The notes under the pieces were generated by a model that made no database searches, was not told the origin of the DNA, and worked only from the letters and a program-made list of their open reading frames with translations. A stretch of DNA of 32,000 nt. Origin: Candidatus Saccharimonadota bacterium (lineage in GTDB: Bacteria; Patescibacteriota; Saccharimonadia; Saccharimonadales; UBA4665). The stretch is from NCBI GenBank assembly GCA_963716945.1, contig OY970322.1:330001-362000 (forward strand), given 5' to 3'. The position numbers and the translations under genes are program-made. Below are positions 2,085 to 16,356 of the stretch, piece by piece. Position 1 is the stretch's first letter. Every line of letters starts with the position of its first letter.

Positions 2085-3146
2085 ATGGACAATGCGCCAT
2101 TACAAGAGCCAAAAAGCCAAACAGCGGAAAACCCGGAACCCGAAGCCCTGAAACCAAGGGTGGACGAGGCCGCGCCGTCGCAGAGCGGGACGGCACCGGT
2201 TACCCGTGTGCCCGCCGCGCCGGCCACCGGCAAACGGCCCAAGCACCGTAATTACCGGCCGAGCCACAAAGCTACCTTCATCGGGGCGGCCGTCGTTATA
2301 GTTATCCTGGTCATCAACGCTGGCATCCTGGCTTTCGTGCTCAAGAACCAAACCAAAACCATCGAAGTCGGCGCCAACGGCGACGTCACCGTCAGTCCCA
2401 GCGTCCTCAAGAAGCTGGGCGTTAACAGTTCGACGCTCGGCAGTCCCGGCGTTCAGCTGGTAGTCGACCCCGACGCCCAGTTCAAGGGCAAGGTATCGAT
2501 TGCCGGCAACCTGGCTGCCAGCGGCCAAGTCCAGGTCAACGGCAAAATTACCGGCAGCGACGCCAGTCTGACCCAGTTGGAGGCCGGCAACACCGCCTTG
2601 TCGCAATTAAACGTTAACGGCAATAGCACCCTATCCGGCCTGAATCTGCGCAGCAACCTGGTCGTGACGGGGACGACCCAGCTCCAGGGCGCGGTTAATA
2701 TCAGCCAGTTATTGACGGTTGATAACAGTTTGAACGTGGTTGGCAACGTGGCTATCGGCGGCACTCTGTCGACAAGGACATTCAGCGCCAACAGCTTAAC
2801 CTCGACCAGTACGCTAACGATTGGCGGCCATGTCGTTACCGGCGGCTCGGCCCCCTCTGTCGGGCCCGGGGGCGGAGCTCTCGGCTCCAATGGCACGGTA
2901 TCGATTAGCGGTGACGACAGCGCCGGCGTAATTGACATTAATATCGGTACCGGCGCCGGCGCGGGCACGCTCGTTAACGTGGCCTTTCGCACCCAGTACG
3001 GCAGCACTCCCCGCGTGGTTATTAGCCCGGTTGGGGTGCCGGGGGAATTTTATGTGCTAAATCTCACCAGCAGCGGTTTTAGCGTGGGGGTTGGCGGCAG
3101 CCTGCCGCCCGGCGGCTACGCTATCAATTACATCGTTGAACAATAG
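2085..3146 (+). CDS. Membrane-anchored beta-helix-like repeat protein (type II orientation) with a C-terminal globular domain
   Basis: Start trimmed to the ATG at 2085, with GAGGA 8 nt upstream and TATAAT at 2052-2057. A Pro/Ala/Glu-rich N-terminal region precedes one TM helix (ATFIGAAVVIVILVINAGILAFVL). Roughly 20-residue repeats of the form x-L-x-V-x-G-N follow (e.g. VSIAGNLAASGQVQVNGKITG, LNVNGNSTLSGLNLRSNLVVTG). The gene is divergent from the two secreted paralogs. Confidence 0.55.
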   Translation: MDNAPLQEPKSQTAENPEPEALKPRVDEAAPSQSGTAPVTRVPAAPATGKRPKHRNYRPSHKATFIGAAVVIVILVINAGILAFVLKNQTKTIEVGANGDVTVSPSVLKKLGVNSSTLGSPGVQLVVDPDAQFKGKVSIAGNLAASGQVQVNGKITGSDASLTQLEAGNTALSQLNVNGNSTLSGLNLRSNLVVTGTTQLQGAVNISQLLTVDNSLNVVGNVAIGGTLSTRTFSANSLTSTSTLTIGGHVVTGGSAPSVGPGGGALGSNGTVSISGDDSAGVIDINIGTGAGAGTLVNVAFRTQYGSTPRVVISPVGVPGEFYVLNLTSSGFSVGVGGSLPPGGYAINYIVEQ

Positions 3147-3181
3147 CCGTTGCCGCGCCTTTTGACGAACCGGCAGCCGCC

Positions 3182-3445
3182 TTACATATTGACGAACAGC
3201 ATGACCTCGTCGTCGCGGACGCCGATAATCCCGTTGCTGATATTGAAATTAATCGTGTCCGAATCGGTTTCGATAACTACTTCGCCCGGACTCATGACCG
3301 AGAAGAAATCGGCGTGCCCGGGCAGTACGTCGAAGGGTCCGACCCGGTTAATACCCGACACCAGCCGGGCCGGGCCTTCATAATATATATGAAAGGGCGC
3401 GCGGGCGATGACGGTCAGCTGCTCCGGTTCGGCTTTGTGTTTCAT
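3182..3445 (-). CDS. atpC: F1 ATP synthase epsilon subunit, beta-sandwich domain only
   Basis: 87 aa. It sits last in the atp operon and its ATG overlaps the atpD stop (ATGA at 3442-3445). Sequence resembles the epsilon N-terminal domain (FHIYYEG.., GPFDVLPGHADF). It is too short to contain the C-terminal helical hairpin. Confidence 0.75.
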   Translation of the reverse strand: MKHKAEPEQLTVIARAPFHIYYEGPARLVSGINRVGPFDVLPGHADFFSVMSPGEVVIETDSDTINFNISNGIIGVRDDEVMLFVNM

Positions 3446-4893
3446 GGCTGTTTGTCGGTTGGCGGCGGCGCGGCGGCGGCCGGGGTTTCAGGCGCCGGCG
3501 CCGGGGCCGCGTCGTCCGGCAGCGGTTCGGTCGGGTCTTTGGGCGGCGCGCCTTCGGTCGGGGTCTTATCGCCCAGGATTTCCTCGATGCCGTCGAGCGT
3601 CTGGTCATGGGTGAAGTACTGGCCCGGCTTGCCGGTCAGGTGTTCGGCGACCGCGAAATCCTGCGAGAAGAACTCGATCAGCTTCTTGGCGCTCTGGTAG
3701 TCGCTGCGGTCGGCCGGCGACAGTTCGTTTTCGCCGACGATGGCGATGATGTTCTTCAAAGACTCGTATTTCTGCATGATGGCTTGGACGCGGCCGGCCA
3801 GCCGGTAGTGGCGTTCGCCGACGATTTGCGGGGTTAGCAGGGAAGAAGTGGTTTTTAGTAAATCTACTGCCGGGCGGATACCGTTTTCGGCGACCGAACG
3901 GGATAGCACCAGAACCGAGTCAAGCTGCTGCTGGATTGCCTGGACGGCCGGGTCGCTCAAGTCGTCGGCCGGGATATAGACGGCTTGCACCGAAGTTATC
4001 GAACCTTTGTCGGTCGAGCTTAAACGGTCTTCCAGGCGGCGCAATTCGGAGAATACCGTCGGCGAGTAGCCGCCTTCGGACGGAATCAGGCCGAGGTTGG
4101 TCGACAGTTCGGTCAACGCCTGGATATGGCGGTAAATATTGTCGACGAAGAACAGGATGTCGCGGCCTTCCTCGTCGCGGAAATATTCGGCCGACGTGGC
4201 CGCCGCCGGCCCGACCATCGACCTTATAGCCGGCGTGGCGTCCATCTGGCCGAAGAACATGACGGTGTTCTTGAGGACTTCGGTCTCCTTAAGCGTCTCG
4301 TAGAGTTCGTTGCCTTCGCGGATACGCTCACCGACACCGCAGTAAATCGACAGGCTTTTCTTGTTGCGCGTGACGTTGTGGATCATTTCCATCGTCAGCA
4401 CCGTCTTGCCGACGCCGGCGCCGCCGACGATGCCGATTTTGCGGCCTTTGACGAAAGGCGTCAGGAAGTCGATGACCTTGAGGCCGGTTTCCAGCAGTTC
4501 GAGCTTCTCGCCGGAGCGGTAACTCTTGGTGCCGGTGGCCTCGCTGATGACCCGCCGGTTTTCCTGGATTAATTCGCCGTTATCCAGCGGTTCGCCGAGG
4601 GCGTTAAAGACCCGTCCGAGCGTCGCCGGTCCGACCGGCACGCTGACTTTGTTGCCGGTCCGCCGGACGGTCTGGCCGCAGCGCAGCACCTGGCTGTTGG
4701 TCAGGTTGACGCAAACGGCCACGCTGGCTTTGAAGAAACTGACTTCCAGGAAAACCTCGGGGTGGTCGTCGACCGTCAACAGCTCTTTTTCTTCGGGCCG
4801 GCTGCCGGCGACTTCGACTTCGACCATCAGGCCGCGCAGGGACTTAATGAGCCCGACTTTGGCTTGGTCGTCTTTGGGGGCGGCGGTTTTCAT
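3442..4893 (-). CDS. atpD: F1 ATP synthase beta subunit with a ~45-aa Pro/Ala-rich C-terminal tail
   Basis: Walker A motif GGAGVGKTVL and typical beta motifs (FFGQMDATPAIR, SVQAVYIPADDLSDPA). The tail reads GDKTPTEGAPPKDPTEPLPDDAAPAPAPETPAAAAPPPTDKQP. Confidence 0.95.
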   Translation of the reverse strand: MKTAAPKDDQAKVGLIKSLRGLMVEVEVAGSRPEEKELLTVDDHPEVFLEVSFFKASVAVCVNLTNSQVLRCGQTVRRTGNKVSVPVGPATLGRVFNALGEPLDNGELIQENRRVISEATGTKSYRSGEKLELLETGLKVIDFLTPFVKGRKIGIVGGAGVGKTVLTMEMIHNVTRNKKSLSIYCGVGERIREGNELYETLKETEVLKNTVMFFGQMDATPAIRSMVGPAAATSAEYFRDEEGRDILFFVDNIYRHIQALTELSTNLGLIPSEGGYSPTVFSELRRLEDRLSSTDKGSITSVQAVYIPADDLSDPAVQAIQQQLDSVLVLSRSVAENGIRPAVDLLKTTSSLLTPQIVGERHYRLAGRVQAIMQKYESLKNIIAIVGENELSPADRSDYQSAKKLIEFFSQDFAVAEHLTGKPGQYFTHDQTLDGIEEILGDKTPTEGAPPKDPTEPLPDDAAPAPAPETPAAAAPPPTDKQP

Positions 4894-5765
4894 GGGCGGC
4901 CCGCCGATTTCTTGCGTTTCTTCTTCTTGAGGCTGATCATGACCTCGCGCAGGCGGCGGTCACTTTCGGAACGCTTGGAACGGTGGAATTCCAGCTGGTA
5001 GTAAACCAGCAGTTCCCAGGCCCGTTTCTTGGCGACGGCCATGGCGTTGAAGCGGCTGGCGTCCTGGGCGAGGCTGGATTCCAGAATGGCTTGGCTGAAG
5101 GCCAGCGTCATCATCGTCATTTCCATCTGGTCGGCAATCTCGTCGAGCGACGGTTCAAAGATGGTGTCCTTGTCGGTGATGATGTCTTCGTCGTCATCGG
5201 TCTCGGCACCCTCGCTCATGGCCCGCATCGTCGACATCAGGTCAATCGTCTTGATACCTTGGACGCCGAGTGAGACGTACTCCTCGTAATAGACGGTGAC
5301 TTTGGCGTAGGGCGCGATGGCCTCAATGACCGGGCTGACATCGATGTAACTGTCGCTTTCCGGCACCTGGAAATAGCGGATGAAAGGGATGCCACGCTGC
5401 TCGAGCTGGTTGGCGCCGTGGCTGCCGAGCACGATGATGTCGGTCGTGTCGGGGTTGTAGGCCGGCAGCATGGTCTCAATCAGTCGTTGGTCGATATCAC
5501 CGCTCAAGCCGGCTTCGGCGGAAATGATTACGAAGACTTCGCGGCCGCCCTCTTTGGCCTGGCGCCGGTTGGTAATCCGCGAGTTAGGGTCGACCCGGAT
5601 CGAGCTGTAGCGTTTCCAGAGCAGTTCGAAGAACTCCTTGGACAGCTCGACTTTGTTCTTGATCTTGGCCACCTGGGTGCTGGCGATACTCTCGAAGACG
5701 CCGGTCAGGTCCTCGACCGTGGTGATCTGCTCGGTCTCTTTCTGGATGGCGCTAGCTCTGCGCAT
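4890..5765 (-). CDS. atpG: F1 ATP synthase gamma subunit
   Basis: Lies between atpA and atpD with overlapping junctions. N- and C-terminal helices are gamma-like (IASTQVAKIKN ..., ASRFNAMAVAKKRA). It has an unusual Lys-rich tail (SLKKKKRKKSAGRP). Confidence 0.85.
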   Translation of the reverse strand: MRRASAIQKETEQITTVEDLTGVFESIASTQVAKIKNKVELSKEFFELLWKRYSSIRVDPNSRITNRRQAKEGGREVFVIISAEAGLSGDIDQRLIETMLPAYNPDTTDIIVLGSHGANQLEQRGIPFIRYFQVPESDSYIDVSPVIEAIAPYAKVTVYYEEYVSLGVQGIKTIDLMSTMRAMSEGAETDDDEDIITDKDTIFEPSLDEIADQMEMTMMTLAFSQAILESSLAQDASRFNAMAVAKKRAWELLVYYQLEFHRSKRSESDRRLREVMISLKKKKRKKSAGRP

Positions 5766-7299
5766 GGGCTTTGTCCTCGGTTTTGGCTTCGGCCGGTTGG
5801 GGCTCGGGCTGCGGTTGTCCAGGCTGGCCGCCGGCCGCTGCCGTGTCTGCCGGCTGGCCGGCTGCCGGTTGGACCGGCGGGCTAACCGGCTTGGAATGCT
5901 TCTTCAGCAGTTCGGCTTCCAGGCGGTCAAAGTCCTTTTCGTCTTTGACTTCGGAACTGACCTCCTTAGCCGATTGCTTGAGGGCGGAGACGTCGATCTC
6001 GGCCGCGCCTTCGCCCAGCAGGATGGTCTCCAGGATCAGCTGCTGCTCGACCAGCGAATGCCGTTCTTCCGGCGGCTGTTTCAGCGCTTCGTAGATCTGT
6101 TTGCCGATCAGCAGGTCGATGCCGGCGTCTTTGGACAGGCTGGAGCCGAAGTGGGAGAACTCCTCGGCCTGGTGGTATTTGGCCAGCTTTTTGAACAGGT
6201 TGCCGGACAGGCGTTTCTGGCGGACGGTCTGGGCTTGGCCGCCGACGCGCGAAACCGACAGTCCGGCGTTGACGGCCGGCCGCACGCCCTGGCGGAAAAC
6301 GCCCAGGTCGAAGATAATCTGACCGTCGGTAATCGACATGATACTGGTCGACAGGTAAGCCGTGATGTCGTCGTTAGGCGTGATGACGACCGGCAGGGCG
6401 GTCAGTGTCTTGTTGGTATCCAGCAGCTTGCCGGCCCGTTCCAGTAGCGATGAGTGGGCGTAAAACATGTCGCCCGGGTACGAATCGCGGCCGGGATCGA
6501 CTTCCTGCAGCAGCGACAACTGGCGGTAAGCCTCGGCATGGCTGCTCAAATCGTCGTAAATGATAACCACGTCCTGGCCGCCGTACCAGAGGTTCTCGGC
6601 CATGGCGCAGGCCGCGTAGGGCGCCAGGTACGACTGCGTCAAGGCGTCGAAAATGTCGGCCAAAACGACGATCGTGTGGTCCATCGCCCCGGACGCCCGC
6701 AGCCCGGCCAGCAGGATTTCGATGTCGACCTTGCGCTTGCCGATCAGGACGTAGACCACGATCCGGTCGGTGCCGGCCTGGTTGGCGCTGAGCTGGCTTA
6801 GGAACGTGCTTTTACCGGATTTGCTGTCGCCCAGGATGGCGATGCGCTGGCCCAGGACGACCGGGAAGAACATGTCGACGGCCGACACGCCGCTGGCCAG
6901 CTGCTCGTTCAGCATGCTGCGGGCCATGATGCCGGGCGCGGCGTTGAAAATACCGGACACTTCCTGGGTCCGGATGGCGCCTTTGCCGTCCAACGGCACC
7001 CCCATCGGCGAAACGACGCGGCCGACCAGGCCTTTGCCGACCGGTACGCTCAAGACGTCGTTTTCGACGACCGCCAGCGTGCCGGGCTCCATTTTCTCCG
7101 AATCGATATTGAATAAAATCACTTGGTCGCCGTAAGCTTCGCGGACCAGCCCGCGCTGGCCGTCTTCGAAGAGTACTTGGGCGCCAAGCGTAACCCCTTC
7201 CAGGCCTTTGACCTCGACGATGAAACTGTTAGATGCTACGACTTCGCCGGTCAGGTGGTCGGCTTCGACCAGTTTTTGAAAGGCCTGGTTATCAAACAT
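5752..7299 (-). CDS. atpA: F1 ATP synthase alpha subunit with a ~50-aa Pro/Gln/Ala-rich C-terminal tail
   Basis: Start trimmed from 7368 to the ATG at 7299, which has GGAGGT upstream and overlaps the atpH stop. Walker A motif GDSKSGKST and typical alpha motifs (VYVLIGKR, DDLSSHAEAYRQLSLL). The tail reads KPVSPPVQPAAGQPADTAAAGGQPGQPQPEPQPAEAKTEDKAHAQS. Confidence 0.95.
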   Translation of the reverse strand: MFDNQAFQKLVEADHLTGEVVASNSFIVEVKGLEGVTLGAQVLFEDGQRGLVREAYGDQVILFNIDSEKMEPGTLAVVENDVLSVPVGKGLVGRVVSPMGVPLDGKGAIRTQEVSGIFNAAPGIMARSMLNEQLASGVSAVDMFFPVVLGQRIAILGDSKSGKSTFLSQLSANQAGTDRIVVYVLIGKRKVDIEILLAGLRASGAMDHTIVVLADIFDALTQSYLAPYAACAMAENLWYGGQDVVIIYDDLSSHAEAYRQLSLLQEVDPGRDSYPGDMFYAHSSLLERAGKLLDTNKTLTALPVVITPNDDITAYLSTSIMSITDGQIIFDLGVFRQGVRPAVNAGLSVSRVGGQAQTVRQKRLSGNLFKKLAKYHQAEEFSHFGSSLSKDAGIDLLIGKQIYEALKQPPEERHSLVEQQLILETILLGEGAAEIDVSALKQSAKEVSSEVKDEKDFDRLEAELLKKHSKPVSPPVQPAAGQPADTAAAGGQPGQPQPEPQPAEAKTEDKAHAQS

Positions 7300-7795
7300 G
7301 GCGCAATACCTCCGGGAACTTGCCGCGGGCCGCCAGGATTTGGCGCCGGAACGACCAGTCGAAAACATGGCTGCCGTAGGCCACGACCATGCCGCCGAGC
7401 AGGGTAGAGTTGAAGCGGAAAGTCACCAGGATGTCCGGCGCGACATGCTGCCGGCACCAGGCGACGAGCGTTTTTTTGAGGCTGGCCGGAGGCGGGGCGG
7501 CCAGGGTGATTGTCATGTGCGGCGCTTTGGCCTCGAAGGCTTCCAGGGCGTCAATCAGGCCGTCCAAAGCCGGCTGGGTCAACGGCTTGCCGCCGGCCAG
7601 GCCCTGGATTAAGGCCACGGCCCCGGCCGATACCGCCGGCGGTTCGGCGATCTTGCCGCCGCCGACCTGCTTCTTGACGCTAGCGTGGGCGAACCAGCGG
7701 GCGTACTGGCGTATCTCGAGCACGATGGCCTTGATGTCCTGGGGCGAAGAGACGTTATCGGGCAGCTTCAGGTTCATCGCCCGCCTCCTTTTCAT
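7292..7795 (-). CDS. atpH: F1Fo ATP synthase delta (OSCP) subunit
   Basis: Lies between the b-like gene and atpA. The C-terminus is delta-like (FRFNSTLLGGMVVAYGSHVFDWSFRRQI). Two candidate starts, 7795 and 7777, each have AAGGAGG 6 nt upstream, so the true start is ambiguous. Confidence 0.75.
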   Translation of the reverse strand: MKRRRAMNLKLPDNVSSPQDIKAIVLEIRQYARWFAHASVKKQVGGGKIAEPPAVSAGAVALIQGLAGGKPLTQPALDGLIDALEAFEAKAPHMTITLAAPPPASLKKTLVAWCRQHVAPDILVTFRFNSTLLGGMVVAYGSHVFDWSFRRQILAARGKFPEVLRHV

Positions 7796-8402
7796 TACCT
7801 ACCTCCTTGATGAAGTCGCCTTTGTGTTCTTCCAGCATGGCCGTCAGGTAAGCGCTTTGGCTGCCCAGGTCGATGTTATGCTGCAAGGTGTCAATCAGGA
7901 AAGACCCGACGGCGTCGGCCAGTTTGGTATCGATCTGCTGGACCAGCCATTGCTTCTCGGCCTTTAGCTCTTCGGCCAGCTTGGCCTCGGTTTCGGCCTG
8001 GTGCTTGGCGACTTCGGCCCGGATGCCGCCCATGCCGTCTTCGGCCTGTTTGCGCAGCTGGTCGAGTTGTTTGCGGTAATTTTCGAGTTCGTCGCCGACG
8101 ATTTCGTTCGCCAGGTGGCCGACGTTTTTGTTGATCTGGGCGGCCGTGGCCTCCAGCTCGCGCTGCAATTGGGCGGCCGAGTGGTCGAGCACGGCCTGGA
8201 AGTGGGCCTGGGAGGTTTGCATCAGCCGTTCTTTAACGGCCGGCGGCAAGTGGTCGCCCGCCGCTTGGGCGTGGGGCTTGTCCGGTTCCGGGGGCGGCGG
8301 CCGGAAGTGGGCATAGGCGTGCCGCACGGCTATCGAAGCTACGACACCGGCGAAGAACACGTCGACCAGGAGGAATAGTTGCAGGATGGCAATGGCTGTC
8401 AT
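7755..8402 (-). CDS. atpF: Fo ATP synthase b-like stator subunit (one TM helix plus long coiled coil)
   Basis: N-terminal TM helix (AIAILQLFLLVDVFFAGVVASIAV), then a Pro-rich linker (FRPPPPEPDKPH), then a charged helical region. It occupies the atpF position upstream of atpH. Assignment rests on architecture and synteny, not strong sequence identity. Confidence 0.55.
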   Translation of the reverse strand: MTAIAILQLFLLVDVFFAGVVASIAVRHAYAHFRPPPPEPDKPHAQAAGDHLPPAVKERLMQTSQAHFQAVLDHSAAQLQRELEATAAQINKNVGHLANEIVGDELENYRKQLDQLRKQAEDGMGGIRAEVAKHQAETEAKLAEELKAEKQWLVQQIDTKLADAVGSFLIDTLQHNIDLGSQSAYLTAMLEEHKGDFIKEVGNEKEAGDEPEAAR

Positions 8403-8403
8403 A

Positions 8404-9285
8404 TCAGAACCTTGACAACACCATGTAAATTGATAAAACCGCGACCCCCAGGATGACCACCACCAGCGTCGACAACTGCAGCACGTTCCGGTAAACCGCC
8501 GCCTGCGACATCGGGTTGCGCCCGACCGAAATAATGCTGCTGTGGATCATGGCGTAGATAATGCTGACGACGATCACCAGCGTCACGATGAAAATACCGA
8601 TGCTGATCAGGATCGGCAGGGAATTGACGGTTTTGCCGGCCAGGGCGTCGGCGATGTTTTGGATGGCCTGGGGGATCAGGGTTTTGGTCGGCTGTTTGTA
8701 GTAGTAGGCGACATTGACCAGGACCGGCACCTCGCCCAGCAGGACGGTGTGTTTTTGGTGGTTTTTGTCGATGTAAGTCTGCTGGCTGCTGGTACTGTTC
8801 GGGAAGACGTCCTGGGCGGTGCCGATGATTTCGGCGTTGCTGCTGGTTTTCATGCCGACACCGCTGATCGGCGAGGCCGTAATCGGGTCGCCGACCTGGA
8901 TGTTGCCGTTCATGTTCGATACCAGCACCTGTTCGATGCCGTTGGTGGCGACCTGGACCTGGTTGCTCTGGCCCGACGACAGCGAGACCTGGGAGTTGTC
9001 GCTGCCGATGATGACGCCCAGCAGGCCGCTGGCGTTGCCGACCGTGGCCGGGTCGACGTAATCCGAGGAATTTTTCTGCAAACTGACAATCGAGCCCGTC
9101 GGCGGATTGCCGTTGGCCAGGAAGCCCTGTGAAATCAAGGTGTCGGCGGCGGCGATAGCCGGAACGGCAAGGGCAAGGCAAACGGCGGCCGCGGCCAGCC
9201 GGAACCCGGCGCCGCCCGGTTTGGACCGCCTGGCCACGCGGCCCCCATAGCCGTTTTTAATTAATTTTTGCGTTTTCATTTCCAT
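8404..9285 (-). CDS. Signal-peptide protein with a ~170-aa extracytoplasmic domain and a C-terminal TM-GRNP-TM hairpin; first gene of the atp operon
   Basis: 293 aa with AAGGTGG upstream of the ATG at 9285. Signal peptide is FRLAAAAVCLALAVPAIAA|ADT. C-terminal TM1 spans aa 223-254, the loop G255-R256-N257-P258 follows, and TM2 spans aa 268-290. Its stop at 8404-8406 is 1 nt from the atpF ATG at 8402, suggesting translational coupling. Confidence 0.6.
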   Translation of the reverse strand: MEMKTQKLIKNGYGGRVARRSKPGGAGFRLAAAAVCLALAVPAIAAADTLISQGFLANGNPPTGSIVSLQKNSSDYVDPATVGNASGLLGVIIGSDNSQVSLSSGQSNQVQVATNGIEQVLVSNMNGNIQVGDPITASPISGVGMKTSSNAEIIGTAQDVFPNSTSSQQTYIDKNHQKHTVLLGEVPVLVNVAYYYKQPTKTLIPQAIQNIADALAGKTVNSLPILISIGIFIVTLVIVVSIIYAMIHSSIISVGRNPMSQAAVYRNVLQLSTLVVVILGVAVLSIYMVLSRF

Positions 9286-9383
9286 CCACCTTGTTAACCT
9301 GGGCTTTATTATAGCAAATAATTCCTGAGGTAAATCCCTGTTCGGCGGCCCGGCCGGATTAGGCCGCCCGTAGCCGCCGGCTG

Positions 9384-9413
9384 TTGACGAAGACCCCTGA
9401 TTACTCTTATGCT
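9384..9413 (+). promoter_or_regulatory. Sigma70-like promoter (TTGACG-18-TATGCT) upstream of the mini-prepilin ORF
   Basis: The -35 is TTGACG at 9384-9389 and the -10 is TATGCT at 9408-9413. Confidence 0.4.
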
Positions 9414-9449
9414 AAACACGTGCCACTAACTAACCGGGCAGGTGTAAAA

Positions 9450-9563
9450 ATGCGCAAACCGCCAACTGGCCAAGCCGGCTATACCTTACTCGAACTGCTG
9501 GTCGTGATCATAATCGCGTGCATCTTGATCACGCTGATAGTCATCAATCTGGCGAACAAATAG
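9450..9563 (+). CDS. 37-aa prepilin-type N-terminal cleavage/methylation peptide (type IV pilin N-terminus only; micro-protein or gene remnant)
   Basis: Not in the ORF track because it is under 60 aa. I translated it as MRKPPTGQAGYTLLELLVVIIIACILITLIVINLANK-stop. It has the class III signal pattern: a basic leader, G|YTLLE with Glu at +5, then a hydrophobic helix. AGGTG lies 6 nt upstream of the ATG. Confidence 0.5.
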   Translation: MRKPPTGQAGYTLLELLVVIIIACILITLIVINLANK

Positions 9564-9568
9564 CGAAA

Positions 9569-9973
9569 CTATTTCAGCTTCGAGGTGCAGAAAGCACAGC
9601 GCCTGGCGTCTTTGGGGATCTGGCTGAGGCACTCCGGGCATTTCTTCTCCGTCGGTTCCTCAGCCGTCTTTTTACGGTTGGTCAGGGCGACGAACTTGTT
9701 CAACGGCTGGACGACGAAGAAAAAGATAACCGACGATATCAGCAGGAAAGAAATAACGGCGTTGAGGAAGTCGCCGTACATGAACTTGCTGCGGTTAAGC
9801 GTGAAATACAGGTTGGAAAAGTCGGGTTTGCCGCCGATAGCACCGATTAACGGCGTCACCAGGTCTTTCACGAGCGCGGTAACAATCGCGCCGAACGCCG
9901 CGCCGATGACGACGGCTATGGCCAGGTCGACGGCGTTGCCGCGCAAGATAAATTTCTTAAAGTCGTTTAGCAT
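9569..9973 (-). CDS. mscL: Large-conductance mechanosensitive channel MscL with a C-terminal CxxC...CxxC zinc-ribbon-like tail
   Basis: The N-terminus is classic MscL (FKKFILRGNAVDLAIAVVIGAAFGAIVTALVKDLVTPLIG). The C-terminus reads KKCPECLSQIPKDARRCAFCTSKL. Confidence 0.9.
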   Translation of the reverse strand: MLNDFKKFILRGNAVDLAIAVVIGAAFGAIVTALVKDLVTPLIGAIGGKPDFSNLYFTLNRSKFMYGDFLNAVISFLLISSVIFFFVVQPLNKFVALTNRKKTAEEPTEKKCPECLSQIPKDARRCAFCTSKLK

Positions 9974-10036
9974 AACTCCCCCTGTGATTACCTTAGTTTA
10001 ATCATATACTAGTCCGGCATCGGCCAAAGTCAAATG

Positions 10037-11086
10037 TTAGGGCCGGTGGCCGCGCCGCGCCGCCCGGCCGAACCGGTGCAAAACCCGGCGGTGGCTCGCA
10101 GCCTGCGACGCGGCTGTCGGCTCGGCCCCCAAAACCGTGGTCCTGGGCGGACGCGACACCGGTCCGCGGGGCGGGTTCGTCCGGTGTTCCTGGTTGACGC
10201 GTTCGTAATCTTCCGGTGTCAGCAGCCTACCGACCGACGGGTCTTCGATGACGGCTTCGATGGCGGCTATCGCTTGGCCGGACTGCCGCCTGGTCTGTTC
10301 GACCAGGCCCCTCAAGCTGATCACGGCCGGCAAGGCTTCAAGCCAGGCGCCTAACTGGGCAGTGTCTTTGTCCTCGATATTCAGGCCGTTATACCAGTCC
10401 AGGGCGTCGGCCGCCGGGACGACCGCGGCCTCGCGGCCCATCGGGTAGGGGTTATCGTAAAAAGCTAACTTTACATGCCGGCTATCGGGTTTAATCGACC
10501 CGCCGGCTTCGGCCGCCAGGTGCGGCCCGCTGTCCCAGCCAAAGGTAACCTGGCCAAGCGGCAGAGGGGTGATCCGTAGCATGGCGTGGCCTGCGATATT
10601 GAAGTTGAAGTTATAAATGCCGTCCGGCCGGGTGCAGATTACGCCGCCGGACTGGTTGCGCCGCGAATAGCTGAAGCTGAACTCGCCTTCGGCCGAACGC
10701 CCCCCCATTCTCCAGAATTCGCTCGGCTGGTCGTCTTCGTCCTCCGGCCGGTGGAAGATGACGGCGGCACTGAGGAACTCGCCGGCCGGCCCCCTCAGCA
10801 AACGGCTGTCGCGGCCCGGCCTGTCGGATGACGCGCCGGCGTTTAATTCCGTTCTCTGGGTGTTTTCTTCGTCAAGGGCGTATTCGCCGCCGGGGGAGCG
10901 CCAGGCCGAAGCCGTCCAACCGCCTTCGGCCAACCTGGGGTCCCGGGGCTGGCCTATGCTATCTATCAAGGGCCGGATGCCGGCGACGGTTTCACGGATG
11001 GCTTCCGTGACTACCGCCAGGTCGGCCGCGGCCAGGCTGGACTCATGGTCCGATGCCGGCCGCTCTGAGGGGGGAACTCCTGCCAT
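10037..11086 (-). CDS. Hypothetical cytoplasmic protein (orphan)
   Basis: Long ORF with codon usage typical of this window. Start trimmed to the ATG at 11086; the track's TTG at 11107 lies inside the predicted -10 box. No TM segment, signal peptide or motif that I recognise. Confidence 0.5.
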   Translation of the reverse strand: MAGVPPSERPASDHESSLAAADLAVVTEAIRETVAGIRPLIDSIGQPRDPRLAEGGWTASAWRSPGGEYALDEENTQRTELNAGASSDRPGRDSRLLRGPAGEFLSAAVIFHRPEDEDDQPSEFWRMGGRSAEGEFSFSYSRRNQSGGVICTRPDGIYNFNFNIAGHAMLRITPLPLGQVTFGWDSGPHLAAEAGGSIKPDSRHVKLAFYDNPYPMGREAAVVPAADALDWYNGLNIEDKDTAQLGAWLEALPAVISLRGLVEQTRRQSGQAIAAIEAVIEDPSVGRLLTPEDYERVNQEHRTNPPRGPVSRPPRTTVLGAEPTAASQAASHRRVLHRFGRAARRGHRP

Positions 11087-11095
11087 AATGCTTAA

Positions 11096-11124
11096 TTTAT
11101 AGTACAAATTACTGCGCTTGTCAA
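11096..11124 (-). promoter_or_regulatory. Near-consensus promoter TTGACA-17-TATAAA for the 10037..11086 gene (near-leaderless)
   Basis: On the minus strand, TTGACA is at 11119-11124 and TATAAA at 11096-11101. The ATG at 11086 lies 9 nt downstream of the -10 box. Confidence 0.5.
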
Positions 11125-11195
11125 TTCAGGGCCCGCAACGGGCGGATAAAAATATAGTTCAAACCCGGCCAGCCATCATTTCAAACCGCTAATGC

Positions 11196-11224
11196 TTGCG
11201 TTAAATTCCGGATGTAATTATGAT
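11196..11224 (+). promoter_or_regulatory. Promoter TTGCGT-17-TATGAT for the 11251..11844 gene
   Basis: The -35 is at 11196-11201 and the -10 at 11219-11224. GGAGAG lies upstream of the ATG at 11251. Confidence 0.45.
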
Positions 11225-11250
11225 ACATGGGCTCTGGAGAGTAATAGCTT

Positions 11251-11844
11251 ATGACGGAATACTTAGACACCCTTGAACCTGACGCCACCATAGTCAGTAT
11301 CTTAGACGACATCTACTCGGATGCCCGGGGCCTTGCCGGCCGGGCCGAGGCCCTGCTGGTGGCCGCCCACGGACCCGACAGCGGTTTGACGACCATACCG
11401 GGCATGGCTTTACAGATGGATCAGGTATCCTCACGGGCTCCTCACGGCGAAGACTTATCAACCGAGCGTTTATTTACCGATACCGACTTGGGACGCCGGG
11501 TTTTACTGTCGGTGTCGGCCACTGAAGGCTACACTACGATTCAACAGAGGGCCGTGCAGGCCCCTAGGGGCGGTGAAGTCGGCGGCTACGTGCTGGCGGT
11601 TTCCCAAACCGGCCTGATAGAGTGCGTTTTGCAAGCCGGTGACCCGGCTGATGAAGCGGAGCCCGTCGGCCGCGACCTGCTGCCGCCCTGGCGCTTCGTA
11701 TCCGAGCTGCCGGATGACACAAGGGATCGTTTAAGGGCCGTAACCAGTTCCTTGAGGGGCAATATGGCCGCCGTCGAATTAATCATGGAAGGCGTCGATC
11801 CCGAAGAGGCGCTGGCCGCCGTCAGCCACGCTGCCGCGGCCTAG
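11251..11844 (+). CDS. Hypothetical acidic cytoplasmic protein (orphan)
   Basis: 197-aa ORF with its own promoter and SD. No recognisable motif. Its stop shares the palindrome CTAG (11841-11844) with the convergent DipZ-like gene. Confidence 0.5.
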   Translation: MTEYLDTLEPDATIVSILDDIYSDARGLAGRAEALLVAAHGPDSGLTTIPGMALQMDQVSSRAPHGEDLSTERLFTDTDLGRRVLLSVSATEGYTTIQQRAVQAPRGGEVGGYVLAVSQTGLIECVLQAGDPADEAEPVGRDLLPPWRFVSELPDDTRDRLRAVTSSLRGNMAAVELIMEGVDPEEALAAVSHAAAA

Positions 11845-13550
11845 CTGCCAAAGGTAAACGTATACAGCTGCACCCCTTTAGGCACGCTTAAGGTAACCGT
11901 CGTGTTGCCGAACTGTCTCAAGGACACGATGTGGTAGAGACGGGAAGCGCTGACCGTGACCTGGCCGTTTACCGCGTCGGCCCCGTACTGGCCGGCTTGA
12001 CCGCTTGGCAAGCCGACTGAAACGGTTTGGTTTTGGGCGCTTGCGCCGCTGGCGACCATATAAACGTCTTTGGCGCTGACGCTGATGGCCAGCGTGGATT
12101 TATTGGCGCCGCTGCTGATATATTCGGGGTTGATTTGCCAGTTGCCGCCCAGGGTCCACTGGCCGGATGCCAGCGGGGCGGCCGGTTTGAAGTCCGCCGT
12201 CCCGTCGCCTAAGACGGCCGGCGTACCGGTGTAACTTTGCTCCCGGTTGGTGCCGAAATAAGTTTCCGCGGTTTGGTCCTGCGAGATCGGCACCGTGCCG
12301 CCCGGCGTTTGCAACGGCGCCTTGATGCCCAGCAGTTCCTGGATGGCCTCCTCGGTCTTGTCGTAGTCGCCCTCGCCGAGGCTGACGTAGCGGACATTGC
12401 CGTCCTTATCGATCAAATAGTCGGCCGGCCAGGAATCATTGTTGTAGGCGTTCCAGGTGTCATCGTTATTGTCCAGGGCAACCGGGTAGAGAATGCCGTC
12501 TTTTTTGACAGCCGCCGCGACGTTGGCCGGGTTGTGCTCAAAAGCGAATTCCGGCGTGTTAATCCCGACGATAACCAGGCCTTTATCCTGGTATGCCTGG
12601 TACCATTTCTCGATGTAGGGCAGAGTCCGGATGCAATTAATGCAGGAGTAGGTCCAGAAATCGACCAGTACGACTTTGCCCCGGAGCTGGCTCATGGTCA
12701 GCGGCGGGCTGTTAATCCAATTGGTCAGGCCCTGGAACTGCGGCGCCGGCGCCGGCTGGACGTTCAGCACGTCCGAGCCGGTTGCGGCCTGGGCCAGGTT
12801 ATGGATAATCGAGTTCTTATGCTGCTTGGCCAGCAAAACCCGTTCGATCCGGGTCTCGTCAAAAGGCAGGTGGTTGGCCACCCACGTTTCGGCCTTAACC
12901 TGGTAGCCGCTGATGACCGCCACACCGATCAGGATAAAAACTACGCCCAGCGCCCGCCGGAACAGGCTGTGCGTGTCAACCGCCCACTCGAACCGGCTGA
13001 TGAACTCCCGCCCAGCGACTGACACCAATAGCAGCGCCAGAACCAGGCCCAGAGTATAGGCGCTCAAATAAATCAGCCCGGCCACGAAACTGCCCGGCAG
13101 CACCGACGCCAGGATGAAAGCGTAAGTCGGGCTGCAGCTGGCGAAGACCGGTCCCAGCGCCACGCCGATTAGCACCGGCCCGACGTATTTATCCTTGTTC
13201 TTTTCGCCTTTGCCGAGGAAGCGCTGCGACGCCGCCTGCCAGTTCAGGCGCACCATCAGCGCTTCCCACCACTCCGGTACGAGCGCCGCCAGACCGAGGG
13301 CGATTAGCAGCCCGCCGGAGAAATCGGTCAGCACGTCCGGCGGCAAATTAATCAGTATGGTGCTGACTTTGAGCAGCAAGGTGAAGAAGATAATCGACCC
13401 GGCCAGTGCCGCCACGATGATGTAGGGCCGGCCTTTTTCCTTGGCTTTACCGCCGACGGAACCGCCGACGATGACCGGCAGCACCGGCAGCACGCACGGG
13501 GCGAGAATCGTCAGCACCCCCGCGATGAAACTTATAATTAGCAGCAGCAT
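11841..13550 (-). CDS. DipZ-like thiol:disulfide interchange membrane protein (CcdA/DsbD-type membrane domain + thioredoxin-like domain + C-terminal beta domain)
   Basis: N-terminal CcdA-like TM region with a conserved Cys (LTILAPCVLPVLPVIVG). Periplasmic redoxin domain with a CxxC motif (DFWTYSCINCIRTLPY). About 150 further C-terminal residues follow. Confidence 0.8.
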   Translation of the reverse strand: MLLLIISFIAGVLTILAPCVLPVLPVIVGGSVGGKAKEKGRPYIIVAALAGSIIFFTLLLKVSTILINLPPDVLTDFSGGLLIALGLAALVPEWWEALMVRLNWQAASQRFLGKGEKNKDKYVGPVLIGVALGPVFASCSPTYAFILASVLPGSFVAGLIYLSAYTLGLVLALLLVSVAGREFISRFEWAVDTHSLFRRALGVVFILIGVAVISGYQVKAETWVANHLPFDETRIERVLLAKQHKNSIIHNLAQAATGSDVLNVQPAPAPQFQGLTNWINSPPLTMSQLRGKVVLVDFWTYSCINCIRTLPYIEKWYQAYQDKGLVIVGINTPEFAFEHNPANVAAAVKKDGILYPVALDNNDDTWNAYNNDSWPADYLIDKDGNVRYVSLGEGDYDKTEEAIQELLGIKAPLQTPGGTVPISQDQTAETYFGTNREQSYTGTPAVLGDGTADFKPAAPLASGQWTLGGNWQINPEYISSGANKSTLAISVSAKDVYMVASGASAQNQTVSVGLPSGQAGQYGADAVNGQVTVSASRLYHIVSLRQFGNTTVTLSVPKGVQLYTFTFGS

Positions 13551-13648
13551 CTTAAGTCCAAGTATAAACCGAATGCTTAATAACTACTTAATGCCTCGTG
13601 ATAACGCCAGCGCTTGCAATCCGCCGGGCAGCGCTCTAAGCTGTTCCC

Positions 13649-14008
13649 ATGCCCGTTCTCTATATCAAGGACCTGGTCGTCGAAGGCAAGCACGGCGTGC
13701 ACCTGCACGAACAGACGACGCCGCAGCGCTTCAGGATAAACGTCGAACTGACCATCGACACCTCGAAAGCCGCCGCCTCGGACGGCCTGGCCGACACCGT
13801 CAATTGGTCCGAGCTCAGGGATATGGTCACCGACACCGTCCGGAACCGGTCATTCGGTTTGGTCGAGCGGCTGGCCCAGGCCTTGGCCGACCAAATCCTG
13901 GCCGACGGCCGTGTCGAAAAACTGGTCTTGTCGGTCGACAAACTCGACGCTTTCCCGAGCGGCATACCCGGCATCCGCATCGAAGCCGCCGGTCCGGCTG
14001 CCGGCTGA
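13649..14008 (+). CDS. folB: Dihydroneopterin aldolase
   Basis: 119 aa with the FolB-like pattern (IKDLVVEGKHGVHLHEQTTPQRFRINVEL ... ASDGLADTVNWSEL ... LVERLAQALADQIL). Confidence 0.8.
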   Translation: MPVLYIKDLVVEGKHGVHLHEQTTPQRFRINVELTIDTSKAAASDGLADTVNWSELRDMVTDTVRNRSFGLVERLAQALADQILADGRVEKLVLSVDKLDAFPSGIPGIRIEAAGPAAG

Positions 14009-14029
14009 TATAATAATTCGGTGCCAGCC

Positions 14030-14106
14030 GCCACCTTAGCTCAGTTGGCTAGAGCGCCGCTTTCGTAAAGCGGAGGTCCGGGGTTCGAATCCCCGAGGTG
14101 GCTCCA
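14030..14106 (+). tRNA. tRNA-Thr (anticodon CGU), CCA encoded, discriminator U73
   Basis: Cloverleaf folded by hand: acceptor GCCACCT/AGGTGGC, D arm GCTC..GAGC, anticodon stem CCGCT/AGCGG with loop TTCGTAA, T arm CGGGG-TTCGAAT-CCCCG. Confidence 0.9.
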
Positions 14107-14139
14107 TAGTTTCACTGTCGGACGCTTCGCTCGTGTCAA

Positions 14140-14164
14140 CATGAAACCCCGCCGGGGTTTCATG
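14140..14164. other. Perfect 11-bp hairpin (CATGAAACCCC-gcc-GGGGTTTCATG) inside the tRNA-Thr/tRNA-Gly spacer
   Basis: Direct inspection shows a perfect inverted repeat with a 3-nt loop. It abuts the duplicated tRNA 3' fragment. Confidence 0.7.
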
Positions 14165-14189
14165 GGTTCGAATCCCCGAGGTGGCTCCA
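14164..14189 (+). repeat. 26-nt exact direct repeat of the tRNA-Thr 3' end (T-loop, T-stem 3' strand, acceptor 3' strand, CCA)
   Basis: GGGTTCGAATCCCCGAGGTGGCTCCA occurs at 14081-14106 within tRNA-Thr and again at 14164-14189. No matching 5' acceptor strand precedes the second copy, so it is not a functional tRNA. Confidence 0.85.
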
Positions 14190-14197
14190 CGTGATCC

Positions 14198-14272
14198 GCG
14201 GGTGTCGTATAACGGCTATTATGTAGCCTTCCCAAGGCTGAGACGCGGGTTCGACTCCCGCCACCCGCACCA
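14198..14272 (+). tRNA. tRNA-Gly (anticodon CCC), CCA encoded
   Basis: Acceptor GCGGGTG/CACCCGC, anticodon stem TAGCC/GGCTG with loop TTCCCAA, T arm GCGGG-TTCGACT-CCCGC. Confidence 0.85.
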
Positions 14273-14300
14273 GCATAAGTGCTACAATAAGGTTTAAACC

Positions 14301-14666
14301 ATGGCGACTTCCAAGCAGTATTTTCATGACCATTTAGTGATGCTGTTGCTCAGCATCGACGCTTTCTTGGCCGTCGGCGGCAGCATTTTTATTTTGCTTA
14401 GCCTCAGCAACGGCCACAGCAACGGCTACATAGTTCAGTGCCGCGACTGCTCCAACCCGGCCGCCGTCAGCAGGTTCACTAACGGCAACCTCACCGGCTT
14501 GCTCAGTTTCGTGGTTTTCGCCGCTCTGGTGCTGGCCGCCCATTCCGTCCTGAGTTTCAGGGCTTACAAAATCCACCGGCAGCTGGCTGTCGCCATCCTG
14601 GCACTCGGCATCCTGCTGCTGATACTCAACATCATAGTCAGCAACGCCCTCCTGGTATTGCGTTAG
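14301..14666 (+). CDS. Small integral membrane protein (about 4 TM helices)
   Basis: 121 aa with four hydrophobic segments. It ends 6 nt before the GT2 gene, so it is probably co-transcribed. Confidence 0.55.
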   Translation: MATSKQYFHDHLVMLLLSIDAFLAVGGSIFILLSLSNGHSNGYIVQCRDCSNPAAVSRFTNGNLTGLLSFVVFAALVLAAHSVLSFRAYKIHRQLAVAILALGILLLILNIIVSNALLVLR

Positions 14667-14672
14667 CCCGCC

Positions 14673-16304
14673 ATGACCGACCTGGAAATCCCGTTTCCCC
14701 AAGACCGCCACGGCCACTACCGCTTCTTCGAAATCCTACCCGGCTTCCTGAGCTGGACCCTTATCCTGGCGCCCCTCATCCTGAGTTTCATAAACGTTAC
14801 GCTGGCGGTCTTCTTTATCCTGATGTACCTGTTGATTTTCTTCGTCAGGGGGCTGGCTTACTCCAGCCGGGCAATTTCCGGCTACCGCGCCATGAAACAG
14901 CAGATGAAACTCGACTGGAACGCCTTGGCTGCCGACATTGACGCCGGCAAAGTCACCGGCGGCAGCGCCCAGCGCCCCAAATGGCACCTCAAGAACCTGA
15001 GGTTGCTCGGCAACCGCGCCTTGCCGCTGAAACCGTCCGAACTGACCCATGCCGTCATCATCGCCACCGTCAACGAGAGCCGGGAAGTGCTTGAACCCAC
15101 CATCCAGGCCATCCTCGACGGCGACTACGACGCCAAGCGCCTGATCCTGGTCATCGCCTACGAAGGCCGTGCCGGCCACGAGTCCGAAGAGCGGGTCCGC
15201 GAGCTGATCGGCCTGTACGGCGGCAGATTTCTCCACGCCATGGCCGTCAAGCATCCGCCCGACCTGCCCGGCGAAATCATCGGCAAAGGCGGCAACATCA
15301 CCTACGCCGGCCGCGCCCTGCAAAAGTATCTGAAAAAGGAAAACTACGACCCGACCCGCGTCATAGTCACCACCCTGGATGCCGACAACCGTCCCGACAA
15401 ACGTTACTTCGCCGCCCTGAGCTACCTCTACTGCGTCGTACCGAACCCGTTGCGCGCCTCCTACCAGCCGATCCCGATGTTCACCAACAACATCTGGGAC
15501 GCCCCGACCATGATGCGGGTTATCGCCACCGGCAACAACCTGTTCTACATCGTCGGTACGCAGCGCCTGCACATGATCCGCAATTTCTCGGCCCACGCCC
15601 AGCCGATGAGCGCCCTGATTGACATGGACTTCTGGAGCGTGCGCACCATCGTCGAGGACGGCCACCATTTCTGGCGGTCCTATTTCTGCTACGACGGCGA
15701 TTACCGGGTTTATCCGTTGAGCATCCCGATCTACCAGGACGCCGTGCTGGCTGACGGTTACCTCAGGACTATCCGGGCCCAGTTCATCCAGCTGCGCCGC
15801 TGGACCTACGGCGCTTCCGACATCGCCTATATTGCCGACAAGGGTTTCTGGCACAAGAACAAAGCCCCCAAAGCCGACGTCCTGTCCAAACTGCTGCGCG
15901 CCCTGGAGGGCCATGTCACCTGGGCGACCGGCACGATACTGATCCTCGGCGCCGCTTTCATCCCGCCGCTGCTGCACCCGCAAAACCTGGCCGCCAACGA
16001 GCTGCCGCTAATCGTCAGGAACGTCCAGCGGGTGGCTATCGCCGGCACGCTGGTCCTGGTCTACGTCTGCTTGGTAACTTTGCCGCCGCGGCCCGCCCGC
16101 TACAAGCGCCACCGTTCGGTCCTGATGCTCGCCCAGTGGGCGCTGATCCCGGTTACCAGTATCTGTTTCGGCTCGCTGGCGGCCTTCAACTCGCAGACCC
16201 GCCTGATGTTCAAACGCTACCTGACACGTTTCGACGTCACGGAGAAGGCCACCATCACCGCCGCCGGCGTCAAACACAGCACCGAAGCCGACCCCGGGAA
16301 GTAA
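14673..16304 (+). CDS. Membrane-embedded family-2 glycosyltransferase, processive synthase type (cellulose/chitin/hyaluronan-synthase-like)
   Basis: N- and C-terminal TM helices flank a cytoplasmic GT-A domain. The domain carries the motifs TLDADNRP (DxD), EDGHHFWR (ED) and QLRRWTYG (Q/RxxRW). Confidence 0.8.
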   Translation: MTDLEIPFPQDRHGHYRFFEILPGFLSWTLILAPLILSFINVTLAVFFILMYLLIFFVRGLAYSSRAISGYRAMKQQMKLDWNALAADIDAGKVTGGSAQRPKWHLKNLRLLGNRALPLKPSELTHAVIIATVNESREVLEPTIQAILDGDYDAKRLILVIAYEGRAGHESEERVRELIGLYGGRFLHAMAVKHPPDLPGEIIGKGGNITYAGRALQKYLKKENYDPTRVIVTTLDADNRPDKRYFAALSYLYCVVPNPLRASYQPIPMFTNNIWDAPTMMRVIATGNNLFYIVGTQRLHMIRNFSAHAQPMSALIDMDFWSVRTIVEDGHHFWRSYFCYDGDYRVYPLSIPIYQDAVLADGYLRTIRAQFIQLRRWTYGASDIAYIADKGFWHKNKAPKADVLSKLLRALEGHVTWATGTILILGAAFIPPLLHPQNLAANELPLIVRNVQRVAIAGTLVLVYVCLVTLPPRPARYKRHRSVLMLAQWALIPVTSICFGSLAAFNSQTRLMFKRYLTRFDVTEKATITAAGVKHSTEADPGK

Positions 16305-16356
16305 TATCCAAAAACCGATTACTGAATCACCAAAATTTATGTTATAGTTTGCCCTT

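Follow-up and report, generated by a model that had tools for sequence, protein, structure and literature searches.

An F1-like ATPase operon of Saccharimonadia carrying a surface protein with a c-subunit-like hairpin in the position of subunits a and c

Genes for the canonical F1Fo ATP synthase are arranged in the order atpIBEFHAGDC, as exemplified among the Saccharibacteria by Southlakia epibionticum. Relatives of the F1 head that are detached from proton translocation have been described in Mycoplasma, where F1-like ATPases with α, β and γ homologues and conserved catalytic residues (type 2 of M. mobile and the type 3 cluster) are encoded together with cluster-specific membrane proteins, including one with two transmembrane (TM) segments, and are tied to the giant proteins Gli521 and Gli349. 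For the type 2 gliding-motor cluster of M. mobile it has been suggested that the 2-TM and 12-TM proteins transmit rotation to Gli521, a giant protein of the cell surface. In the candidate phyla radiation (CPR), operons of the WWE3 and OP11 lineages include recognisable α, β, γ and δ/ε genes with three adjacent genes non-homologous to a, b and c (Kantor et al. 2013). The complete WWE3 genome RAAC2 has one ATPase operon, in which "a, b and c" are without homology to known subunits, and Kantor et al. 2013 treated the operon as an ATP synthase, leaving the ion and the direction unknown. Here we analyse an operon, apparently of that same kind, found on the minus strand of a 32,000-nucleotide stretch of DNA (contig OY970322.1, positions 330,001 to 362,000; hereafter the window) of about 60% G+C from a member of the class Saccharimonadia (Saccharibacteria, TM7), which belongs to the CPR. 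The operon encodes an F1-like ATPase and, in the slot of atpB and atpE, a membrane-anchored surface protein, ORF293, which we call X.

The gene order is X-b-δ-α-γ-β-ε, and all seven ORFs were found where a preliminary description of this DNA had placed them: X (8404-9285), a b-like peripheral-stalk subunit of 215 aa (7755-8402), a δ/OSCP-like subunit of 167 aa (7292-7795), F1-like α (5752-7368, probably starting near 7299), a divergent F1-like γ (4890-5765), F1-like β (3442-4893) and an 87-aa ε (3182-3445). The junctions are coupled, as described: X and b are joined by TGAtATG at 8400-8406, γ/β and β/ε overlap by ATGA, and the overlaps at the other junctions are longer. The cluster thus encodes catalytic α and β, a rotor made of γ and the c-ring-binding half of ε, a b-/δ-like stalk, and X. 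We consider it about an even chance that this is a Saccharimonadia-specific F1-like ATPase that lacks subunit a, does not translocate ions, and uses X, derived from subunit c, to link ATP hydrolysis to the cell surface. The composition of the cluster and of its neighbourhood suggests that the motor acts at the cell surface instead of making ATP.

Judged from its sequence, the ATPase part derives from F1, keeps its catalytic core intact and looks active, yet it is not a standard F1Fo. In β (PF00006, 1e-65) the motifs for the P-loop (GGAGVGKT), for the catalytic Glu (within GVGERIREGNE) and for the adenine-binding Tyr of the adenine pocket (YIPADDLSDP) are intact, and α (PF00006, 8e-63) retains the P-loop and the SRVGG arginine-finger region. 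Identities to the E. coli proteins are 45% for β (AtpD), 38% for α (AtpA) and 20% for γ (AtpG); δ and b gave no significant match to their E. coli counterparts. No F1 subunit of the cluster attains the NCBIfam equivalog cut-off for F1Fo, the values (bits/cut-off) being 388/484 for α (TIGR00962), 449.5/462.85 for β (TIGR01039), 71/194 for γ (TIGR01146), 18/57.5 for δ (TIGR01145) and 31/67 for ε (TIGR01216). In Pfam γ matches PF00231 at 3e-26, δ is recognisable in its C-terminal half only (PF00213, E=5e-5, 23.8 bits), and ε consists of the N-terminal β-sandwich alone (PF02823, 1.6e-9). The b-like subunit starts with a TM helix, continues as a long coiled coil, and has no Pfam ATP-synt_B match and only a weak one to the NCBIfam F0F1 subunit B model (E=0.03-0.07). 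The N-terminal barrel of β is not recognised by Pfam in the window protein or in its 120 closest relatives. Both α (5752-5900) and β (3442-3560) end in low-complexity tails of about 40-50 aa, Pro/Gln-rich in α and Pro/Ala-rich in β. E. coli lacks such tails, as does the β of a second group of these clusters, which is 434 aa long. A search with β returned F1-like orthologues only among the best 120 matches listed. Two near-identical β proteins (P0281 and P0351) carry the NCBI labels Magnetospirillaceae and Candidatus Woesebacteria; these are probably binning or labelling errors, not occurrences outside Saccharimonadia.

By comparison, the saccharibacterium Southlakia epibionticum has a normal atpI-a-c-b-δ-α-γ-β-ε operon, in which γ scores 3.5e-82, ε is 141 aa long, b matches PF00430 at 1e-25 (no such match was obtained here), c matches PF00137 and a matches PF00119. 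Since that operon scores as ordinary F1Fo, the divergence is specific to this type of cluster and not a general CPR property. The two have in common the b-δ-α-γ-β-ε order, the catalytic motifs and an R-N-P hairpin at the c position; the window cluster differs in having no subunit a, no stand-alone c, no carboxylate and no GxGxGxG motif, in its sub-cut-off subunits and short ε, and in its surface-fibre neighbours. NCBIfam models of the Mycoplasma F1-like proteins (MSC_0618/0619 and glide_MMOB1660/1670) gave 389/570, 250/520, 341/850 and 291/600 bits, below the canonical F1 scores; FliI/SctN models gave 190-220 bits with α and β, far below those of the F1 models; and the models of the N-ATPase ('alternate F1F0'), a family whose operon keeps subunits a and c, scored under canonical F1 and under their own cut-offs, so that the window cluster is not a member. 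The cluster is thus outside the canonical F1Fo family, several of whose defining features it lacks, and, on these profile scores, outside the Mycoplasma F1-like, FliI and N-ATPase families.

Protein X, as anticipated in the preliminary description, has a signal peptide, an outward-facing domain and two TM helices joined by a G-R-N-P loop, and an AlphaFold2 (AF2) model agrees with this anatomy. The model, made with an alignment of 141 sequences, has a mean pLDDT of 90.8 (an alignment of 29 close homologues gave 50) and comprises a signal helix at residues 25-39 followed by AIA|AADT, a β-rich region at 51-195, a helix at 206-216 and two 35-residue helices (222-256 and 258-292) turning exactly at G255-R256-N257-P258. 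The corresponding DNA is 9148-9285 for the Sec-type signal peptide (aa 1-46, cleavage motif AIA|AADT), 8671-9147 for the extracellular β-rich domain (about aa 47-205), 8410-8622 for the TM hairpin (aa 222-292) and 8512-8523 for the cytoplasmic loop. What did not hold is the start codon: because a Shine-Dalgarno-like AAGGTGG abuts the first ATG, that ATG is unlikely, and translation probably begins at the second, at 9279 (MKTQ..., 291 aa), as in the homologues. This is the only detail checked in which the initial observation was not correct. A TATAAT hexamer lies upstream of X on the minus strand (9313-9308), as noted previously; a consensus scan gave no good -35 element to match it, and no convincing internal terminator was seen on the operon strand.

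The whole protein has no family in Pfam or NCBIfam, and its whole-length profile matched nothing in the Protein Data Bank (PDB). Nevertheless X is abundant: a profile search of 1.84 billion representative proteins returned 4,472 clusters at 50% identity with E<=1e-3, nearly all of 250-290 aa with a common architecture, and the window protein has more than 1,395 close homologues. The homologues that carry a taxonomic name are all from Saccharimonadia or Saccharimonadales. With Foldseek the ectodomain matched the Borrelia phage BB1 shell in the PDB (8pkh, E=4e-4) and 38 BFVD entries at E<=1e-3, the best at 1.4e-9. The fold resembles that of the decoration or cement proteins of phage capsids and of the N-terminal domains of phage fibres (PF23982 XM1_gp53, PF22758 and PF09956), domains of a kind with which phages fix fibres and decoration proteins. 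PF23982 is matched by 23 of the 141 family members, the window protein itself having no Pfam match. Unlike the phage decoration proteins, X is a cellular protein with a signal peptide and with a hairpin that anchors it in the membrane.

Four independent but weak lines, namely a profile search of the PDB, hhalign, Foldseek and gene position, agree that the hairpin is c-like. When the hairpin-only profile was compared with the 177,635 distinct sequences of the PDB, the single match at E<=10 was an ATP synthase subunit c (9itj_H, E=0.12), in which SIGRNPL of X aligns with AIGRNPE. The hhalign comparison with a c profile scored 20.7 (P=0.0018, probability 15%) over 42 columns with GRNP on ARQP in register; the c profile consisted of seven sequences, of which the E. 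coli one alone was checked against its record. None of 150 column shuffles reached this score (maximum 18.6), the reversed profile gave 8.3, and nine control membrane proteins, including VirB2, TraA, AtpI, AtpB, AtpF and MscL, all stayed at or below 16; AtpI was rejected as a relative of the hairpin on this basis. Foldseek paired the hairpin with c subunits only, with probabilities of 0.44-0.77, and the X gene occupies the position of atpE. The predicted topology fits as well: the signal peptide and the ectodomain make helix 1 enter from outside, the loop is cytoplasmic and both ends of the hairpin face outward, as in subunit c. In sequence the loop hardly varies: among 141 diverse sequences G, R and P never change and conservation of N is at least 90%, GRNP is identical in 126 of the 126 family members typed for genomic context, and in these the stretch S-S-I-I-S-[VI]-G-R-N-P-[ML]-[SA]-[QE] is essentially fixed.

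In other respects the hairpin is not that of a functional c subunit, in agreement with what had been noted initially: the loop matches the c-type R-(Q/N)-P, helix 2 has no acidic residue and helix 1, LPILISIGIFIVTLVIVVSIIYAMIH, has no GxGxGxG motif. Neither TM helix of X has an acidic residue, and the position aligned to the c carboxylate is hydrophobic. The hairpin alone had no Pfam match even at E<=10. Because the mid-helix-2 carboxylate, the Gly motif and a Pfam match are all absent, X is not a member of the c-subunit family, although its hairpin is probably c-derived. One reading in the preliminary description was a degenerate c-like anchor tethering an exposed domain to the stator. Its first part is the reading best supported by the PDB profile, hhalign and Foldseek; as to the tether on the stator, the invariant cytoplasmic loop fits a contact with the γε foot of the rotor better. 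The sole semi-conserved polar site in the membrane part is Q270 (8476-8478), 14 residues past the loop Arg and about 6 residues nearer the cytoplasm than the c-subunit carboxylate. It is mostly Q, with E or D in about a fifth of the sequences (12 of 97 ATPase-linked and 12 of 29 fibre-linked).

The association of X with the ATPase was examined by a pattern scan of one genome per GTDB species, which yielded 276 stretches with relatives; the best 80, with 50-71% identity and all from Saccharibacteria metagenome-assembled genomes, were analysed. The complete X-b-δ-α-γ-β-ε order was present in 62 of the 80 species loci, the other 18 were cut by contig ends, and there were no exceptions, so that homologues of ORF293 precede atpF in every assessable locus, a check that the preliminary description had proposed. 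The same order was found in locus P0130 (36% identity), in Ca. Microsaccharimonas, and in two loci reached from β and not from X. In a neighbour-joining tree of X the clade of the window protein is ATPase-linked in 78 of 78 cases, and 119 of 126 sequences have a nearest neighbour with the same genomic context. The downstream side of the cluster is conserved and the upstream side is not.

Searches of the window with phmmer, using E. coli AtpB, AtpE and AtpI, and with a c-subunit HMM were empty for all ORFs of at least 45 aa, which confirms that it has no a or c gene. Its only multi-TM ORFs are X, MscL, a DsbD/thioredoxin fusion, an M50 peptidase, two membrane proteins of 121 and 543 aa, and antisense artefacts. 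Homologues of a or c were also absent from about 170 fetched related loci, covering about 2.1 Mb. Oral Saccharibacteria have the canonical operon only, and Saccharibacteria of clade G6 have no F1Fo ATPase at all. That a canonical F1Fo co-exists elsewhere in the genome of the window we take to be somewhat less than an even chance. The reading preferred here is unaffected by a second F1Fo because it is compatible with its presence or absence; the cluster may also be the only F-type complex in these lineages, which would then have no ATP synthase at all.

These data bear on the possibility of a split operon, in which an ordinary proton-coupled F1Fo has its atpB and atpE elsewhere and X is an accessory or an unrelated surface protein that shares the transcript. 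The catalytic residues, b and δ are kept, other Saccharibacteria have complete canonical operons, and both NCBI and JGI label these β proteins as F0F1 ATP synthase β, all of which would agree with it. We nevertheless judge it unlikely, since each non-catalytic subunit is strongly divergent and ε is truncated, X sits translationally coupled in the a/c slot in every assessable locus of the 80 species, the 2.1 Mb of loci hold no a or c gene, and the constant neighbours are surface fibres and not energy-metabolism genes. Furthermore, no ATPase operon is reported from the complete WWE3 genome besides the one with non-homologous membrane subunits (Kantor et al. 2013).

The cluster together with X always adjoins membrane-anchored tail-fibre-like proteins, of 390 aa in the window and of more than 3,700 aa elsewhere. 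The window protein, d1 (1974-3146, plus strand, probable start 2085), is convergent with the ATPase operon and has a Pro-rich cytoplasmic N-tail, one TM helix and a β-helical exterior. Homologues of d1 occupy the equivalent position in 61 related loci, and two adjoining secreted Thr/Ser/Gly-rich proteins are found in 58-59. A second sample of X, obtained with the pattern IISIGRNPL from metagenomes, consisted of 80 loci. About 22 of these have the ATPase operon, and there the next gene after ε, read in the same direction, encodes a giant repeat protein with a membrane anchor. Its length is 3,086 aa in locus L175 and at least 3,779 aa in L176; when cut off by the end of the locus, it still measures at least 1,640 aa. 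One of these loci, L100, has the order b-δ-α-γ-β-ε-X-giant. Over its last 150 residues d1 matches the C-terminal domain of the giant fibres (blastp E=2e-16 to the C-terminus of a 2,681-aa protein of locus L116), and d1 is therefore a miniature member of the giant family.

On the other side of d1 lies the operon for Pam pili, to which the two secreted proteins belong: NCBIfam identifies them as PamT, the tip pilin of the CPR Pam pilus (1220-2038, minus strand, probable start about 1912; NF058579 CPR_pilus_PamT, 272.5 bits with a cut-off of 240), and a PamA/B/E-type pilin (10-1149, minus strand; NF058581 CPR_Pam_pilin_C, 143.8 bits with a cut-off of 55). This pam operon is transcribed away from d1 and runs on past the window edge. 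In the Microsaccharimonas locus L174 the PamT and Pam pilin models are likewise above cut-off. A search for homologues of Pam pilins around the ATPase clusters of the second group was empty, so the link with Pam is limited to the clade of the window. The structure of Pam pili was solved from Ca. Mycosynbacter amalyticus, another member of Saccharimonadia (Troman et al., bioRxiv 2026, 10.64898/2026.03.03.709456). These authors reported that 'ATP synthase components' share the neighbourhood of the pam operon with a tail fibre-like gene and interpreted this as coupling to ATP production. We infer from the description that d1 is their 'tail fibre-like protein'. In locus L174 (5729-9859) the cluster is preceded by genes for a CBS-domain (CorB-like) protein, DsbA, a major facilitator superfamily transporter and a MazE-like antitoxin; this set, DsbA excepted, is the 'ATP/PMF sensing' set that lies beside the pam operon in Troman et al. 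2026, and none of the four genes is present in the window.

With such neighbours the F1-like complex could be an export or assembly motor for the giant fibres or the Pam pilins, comparable to FliI-FliJ-FliH, with X as a membrane gate or platform. FliI, FliJ and FliH are homologous to α/β, γ and b/δ, respectively, and the scores of α and β against FliI/SctN point the same way, as do the constant proximity of fibre genes encoding up to more than 3,700 aa and of the pam operon, and the fact that Troman et al. 2026 found no assembly platform for Pam. As in the flagellar system, an F1-related stalked ATPase would here serve an extracellular filament. However, FliI is a homo-hexamer without ε, while the cluster has distinct α and β in the F1 order plus an ε, and the F1 models score far better than FliI. 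No export-gate homologues are present, the fibres and pilins have ordinary N-terminal signal anchors or Sec signal peptides, and X has no channel-like features. We regard an export motor as no more probable than the split operon.

The X family also occurs apart from the ATPase. About 26 loci of the second sample have X followed by a homologous giant (770 to more than 3,285 aa) and no ATPase within 10 kb, and the giants beside ATPase operons are homologous to those beside lone X genes. Locus L176, a metagenome contig of 231 kb, has X paralogues back to back (1-4998, minus strand, and 5764-21305, plus strand), one in an X-ATPase-giant arrangement (giant of at least 3,779 aa) and the other in a divergent X2-giant2 pair (at least 1,443 aa). 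Giant2 of this locus matches the X-family HMM at 2e-18, and on this ground fibre proteins contain an X-like ectodomain module. Ahead of the X-giant pairs without an ATPase (L097, L111, L116, L130, L144, L157 and others) there repeatedly stand parA-parB and, in divergent orientation, a gene for signal peptidase I, which places these pairs near the chromosome partition locus.

These paralogues raise the possibility that X is a generic two-helix anchor for a phage-like domain exposed at the fibre base and makes no contact with the ATPase, the linkage being one of co-regulation. In its favour are the many X genes beside giant fibre genes away from any ATPase, the equal conservation of the loop in those paralogues and the X-like module of the giants. 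On the other hand, X is coupled to the b-like gene by TGAtATG exactly in the a/c position; the gene orders vary (X-ATPase-giant or ATPase-X-giant) without separating X and the ATPase from a fibre gene or from each other; an invariant cytoplasmic loop of 13 residues exceeds what an anchor needs; and the hairpin resembles c subunits specifically. We hold this explanation to be slightly less likely than either the split operon or the export motor. The remaining suggestion of the preliminary description, a TrbC/VirB2-type conjugative pilin hairpin with a coincidental atp adjacency, for which the two-helix hairpin after a signal peptide and the VirB2-like pilins that Saccharibacteria do encode might be adduced, is negligible and already refuted by the conserved ATPase synteny and the lack of similarity (no PF04956 or PF18895 match; hhalign scores of 9-10 against VirB2 and TraA, equal to background), and neither the 170-aa ectodomain between signal peptide and hairpin nor the absence of type IV secretion genes from the window agrees with it.

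Returning to the a-less F1-like ATPase with X as its surface link, the complex most plausibly works like the F1-like machines of Mycoplasma. In the mechanism that we propose, the hairpin would descend from subunit c, X would oligomerise in the membrane, and its G-R-N-P loops would dock the γε foot as the R-Q/N-P loop of the c-ring does. Since the cluster has neither subunit a nor the carboxylate, there would be no ion path, and ATP hydrolysis would therefore be transduced mechanically through X. A rotation or power stroke could in this way pass via X to an extracellular crown and the associated fibre or pilus apparatus, and the output would help the cell to attach to its host or to move on it. 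The fibre protein, with its TM helix and its cytoplasmic tail, offers candidates for the stator anchor. In a more specific version X would be a c-ring-like rotor that lacks an ion path and is turned by the F1-like head through ATP hydrolysis; torque or a power stroke would then reach a crown outside the membrane, which would hold or drive the tail-fibre-like proteins, the Pam pili or both. This version we find doubtful, though less so than the split operon.

Several points weigh against this interpretation. The similarity to subunit c is under any accepted threshold (hhalign 15%, HMMER E=0.12, no Pfam match), and a TM hairpin is a simple fold. The GRNP loop is equally invariant in X paralogues located away from an ATPase, and its conservation therefore need not reflect binding to γε, unless they too make use of that ATPase. 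The model does not account for the presence of b and δ, whose normal role is to hold subunit a, and for the stator anchor it has candidates only. Phage decoration domains are usually trimeric, which is a poor fit with a large c-ring. Canonical a and c genes may sit elsewhere in the genome. Finally, Pam pili require no dedicated trans-envelope machine according to Troman et al. 2026.

The likeness to the Mycoplasma clusters lies in the α, β and γ homologues with conserved catalytic residues, in the detachment from proton translocation that is proposed here for the window cluster, in the cluster-specific membrane proteins encoded alongside and in the tie to giant surface proteins. The differences are that the lineage described here is independent, that it keeps the canonical F-type order, a b-/δ-like stalk and ε, and that its membrane partner is c-like with an ectodomain; the Mycoplasma clusters, in addition, co-exist with a genuine F1Fo. 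In the searchable literature we did not find described X itself, the loss of the ion-translocating part, the size and the two genomic contexts of the X family, or the constant pairing with a tail-fibre-like giant. Both Kantor et al. 2013 and Troman et al. 2026 are silent on X, that is, on a carboxylate-less c-like hairpin with a phage-like ectodomain paired with a giant, and the latter makes no mention of missing a and c genes. A literature search found no paper joining the term 'F1-like ATPase' with Patescibacteria, and several papers on CPR metabolism are silent on the subunits. The prior art is thus one sentence of 2013 on unrecognisable membrane subunits and a neighbourhood analysis of 2026 that calls the genes ATP synthase.

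On the upstream side of X the first gene is divergent, as had been described. It is a 59-aa ORF (9384-9563, plus strand) with a type IV pilin N-methylation motif (PF07963, 1.1e-6), too short for a full pilin; locus L001 has a 30-aa N_methyl gene at the equivalent position. It is followed by a gene for an MscL channel (9569-9973, minus strand) with a C-terminal zinc-ribbon extension (PF10571, PF17032). The region 10037-11844 includes ORFs of 356 aa (minus strand) and 197 aa (plus strand) with no Pfam match and no homologue in the 80 related species loci.

Metabolic reconstructions of Saccharibacteria and of other CPR bacteria annotate and discuss genes of this kind as an ATP synthase. Should the complex lack both a channel subunit and an ion-binding site, the proton-motive-force inferences made for hundreds of species would be wrong. 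F1 would then have been turned into a mechanical device for a second time and independently, and its membrane transmission element would be identifiable, namely a hairpin derived from c that is joined to an extracellular domain. The cluster is also a candidate for the energy source and base structure of the giant fibres and Pam pili that mediate contact with the host. Ca. Mycosynbacter amalyticus is a cultivable carrier of the pam neighbourhood for which cryo-electron microscopy, cryo-electron tomography and proteomics methods are established. Should the rotary version hold, X and its ATPase would constitute a new ATP-driven rotary surface machine and the missing trans-membrane part of the CPR fibre or pilus apparatus, as well as a direct example of the 'Fo-like transmission' that has been sought for the Mycoplasma gliding motor.

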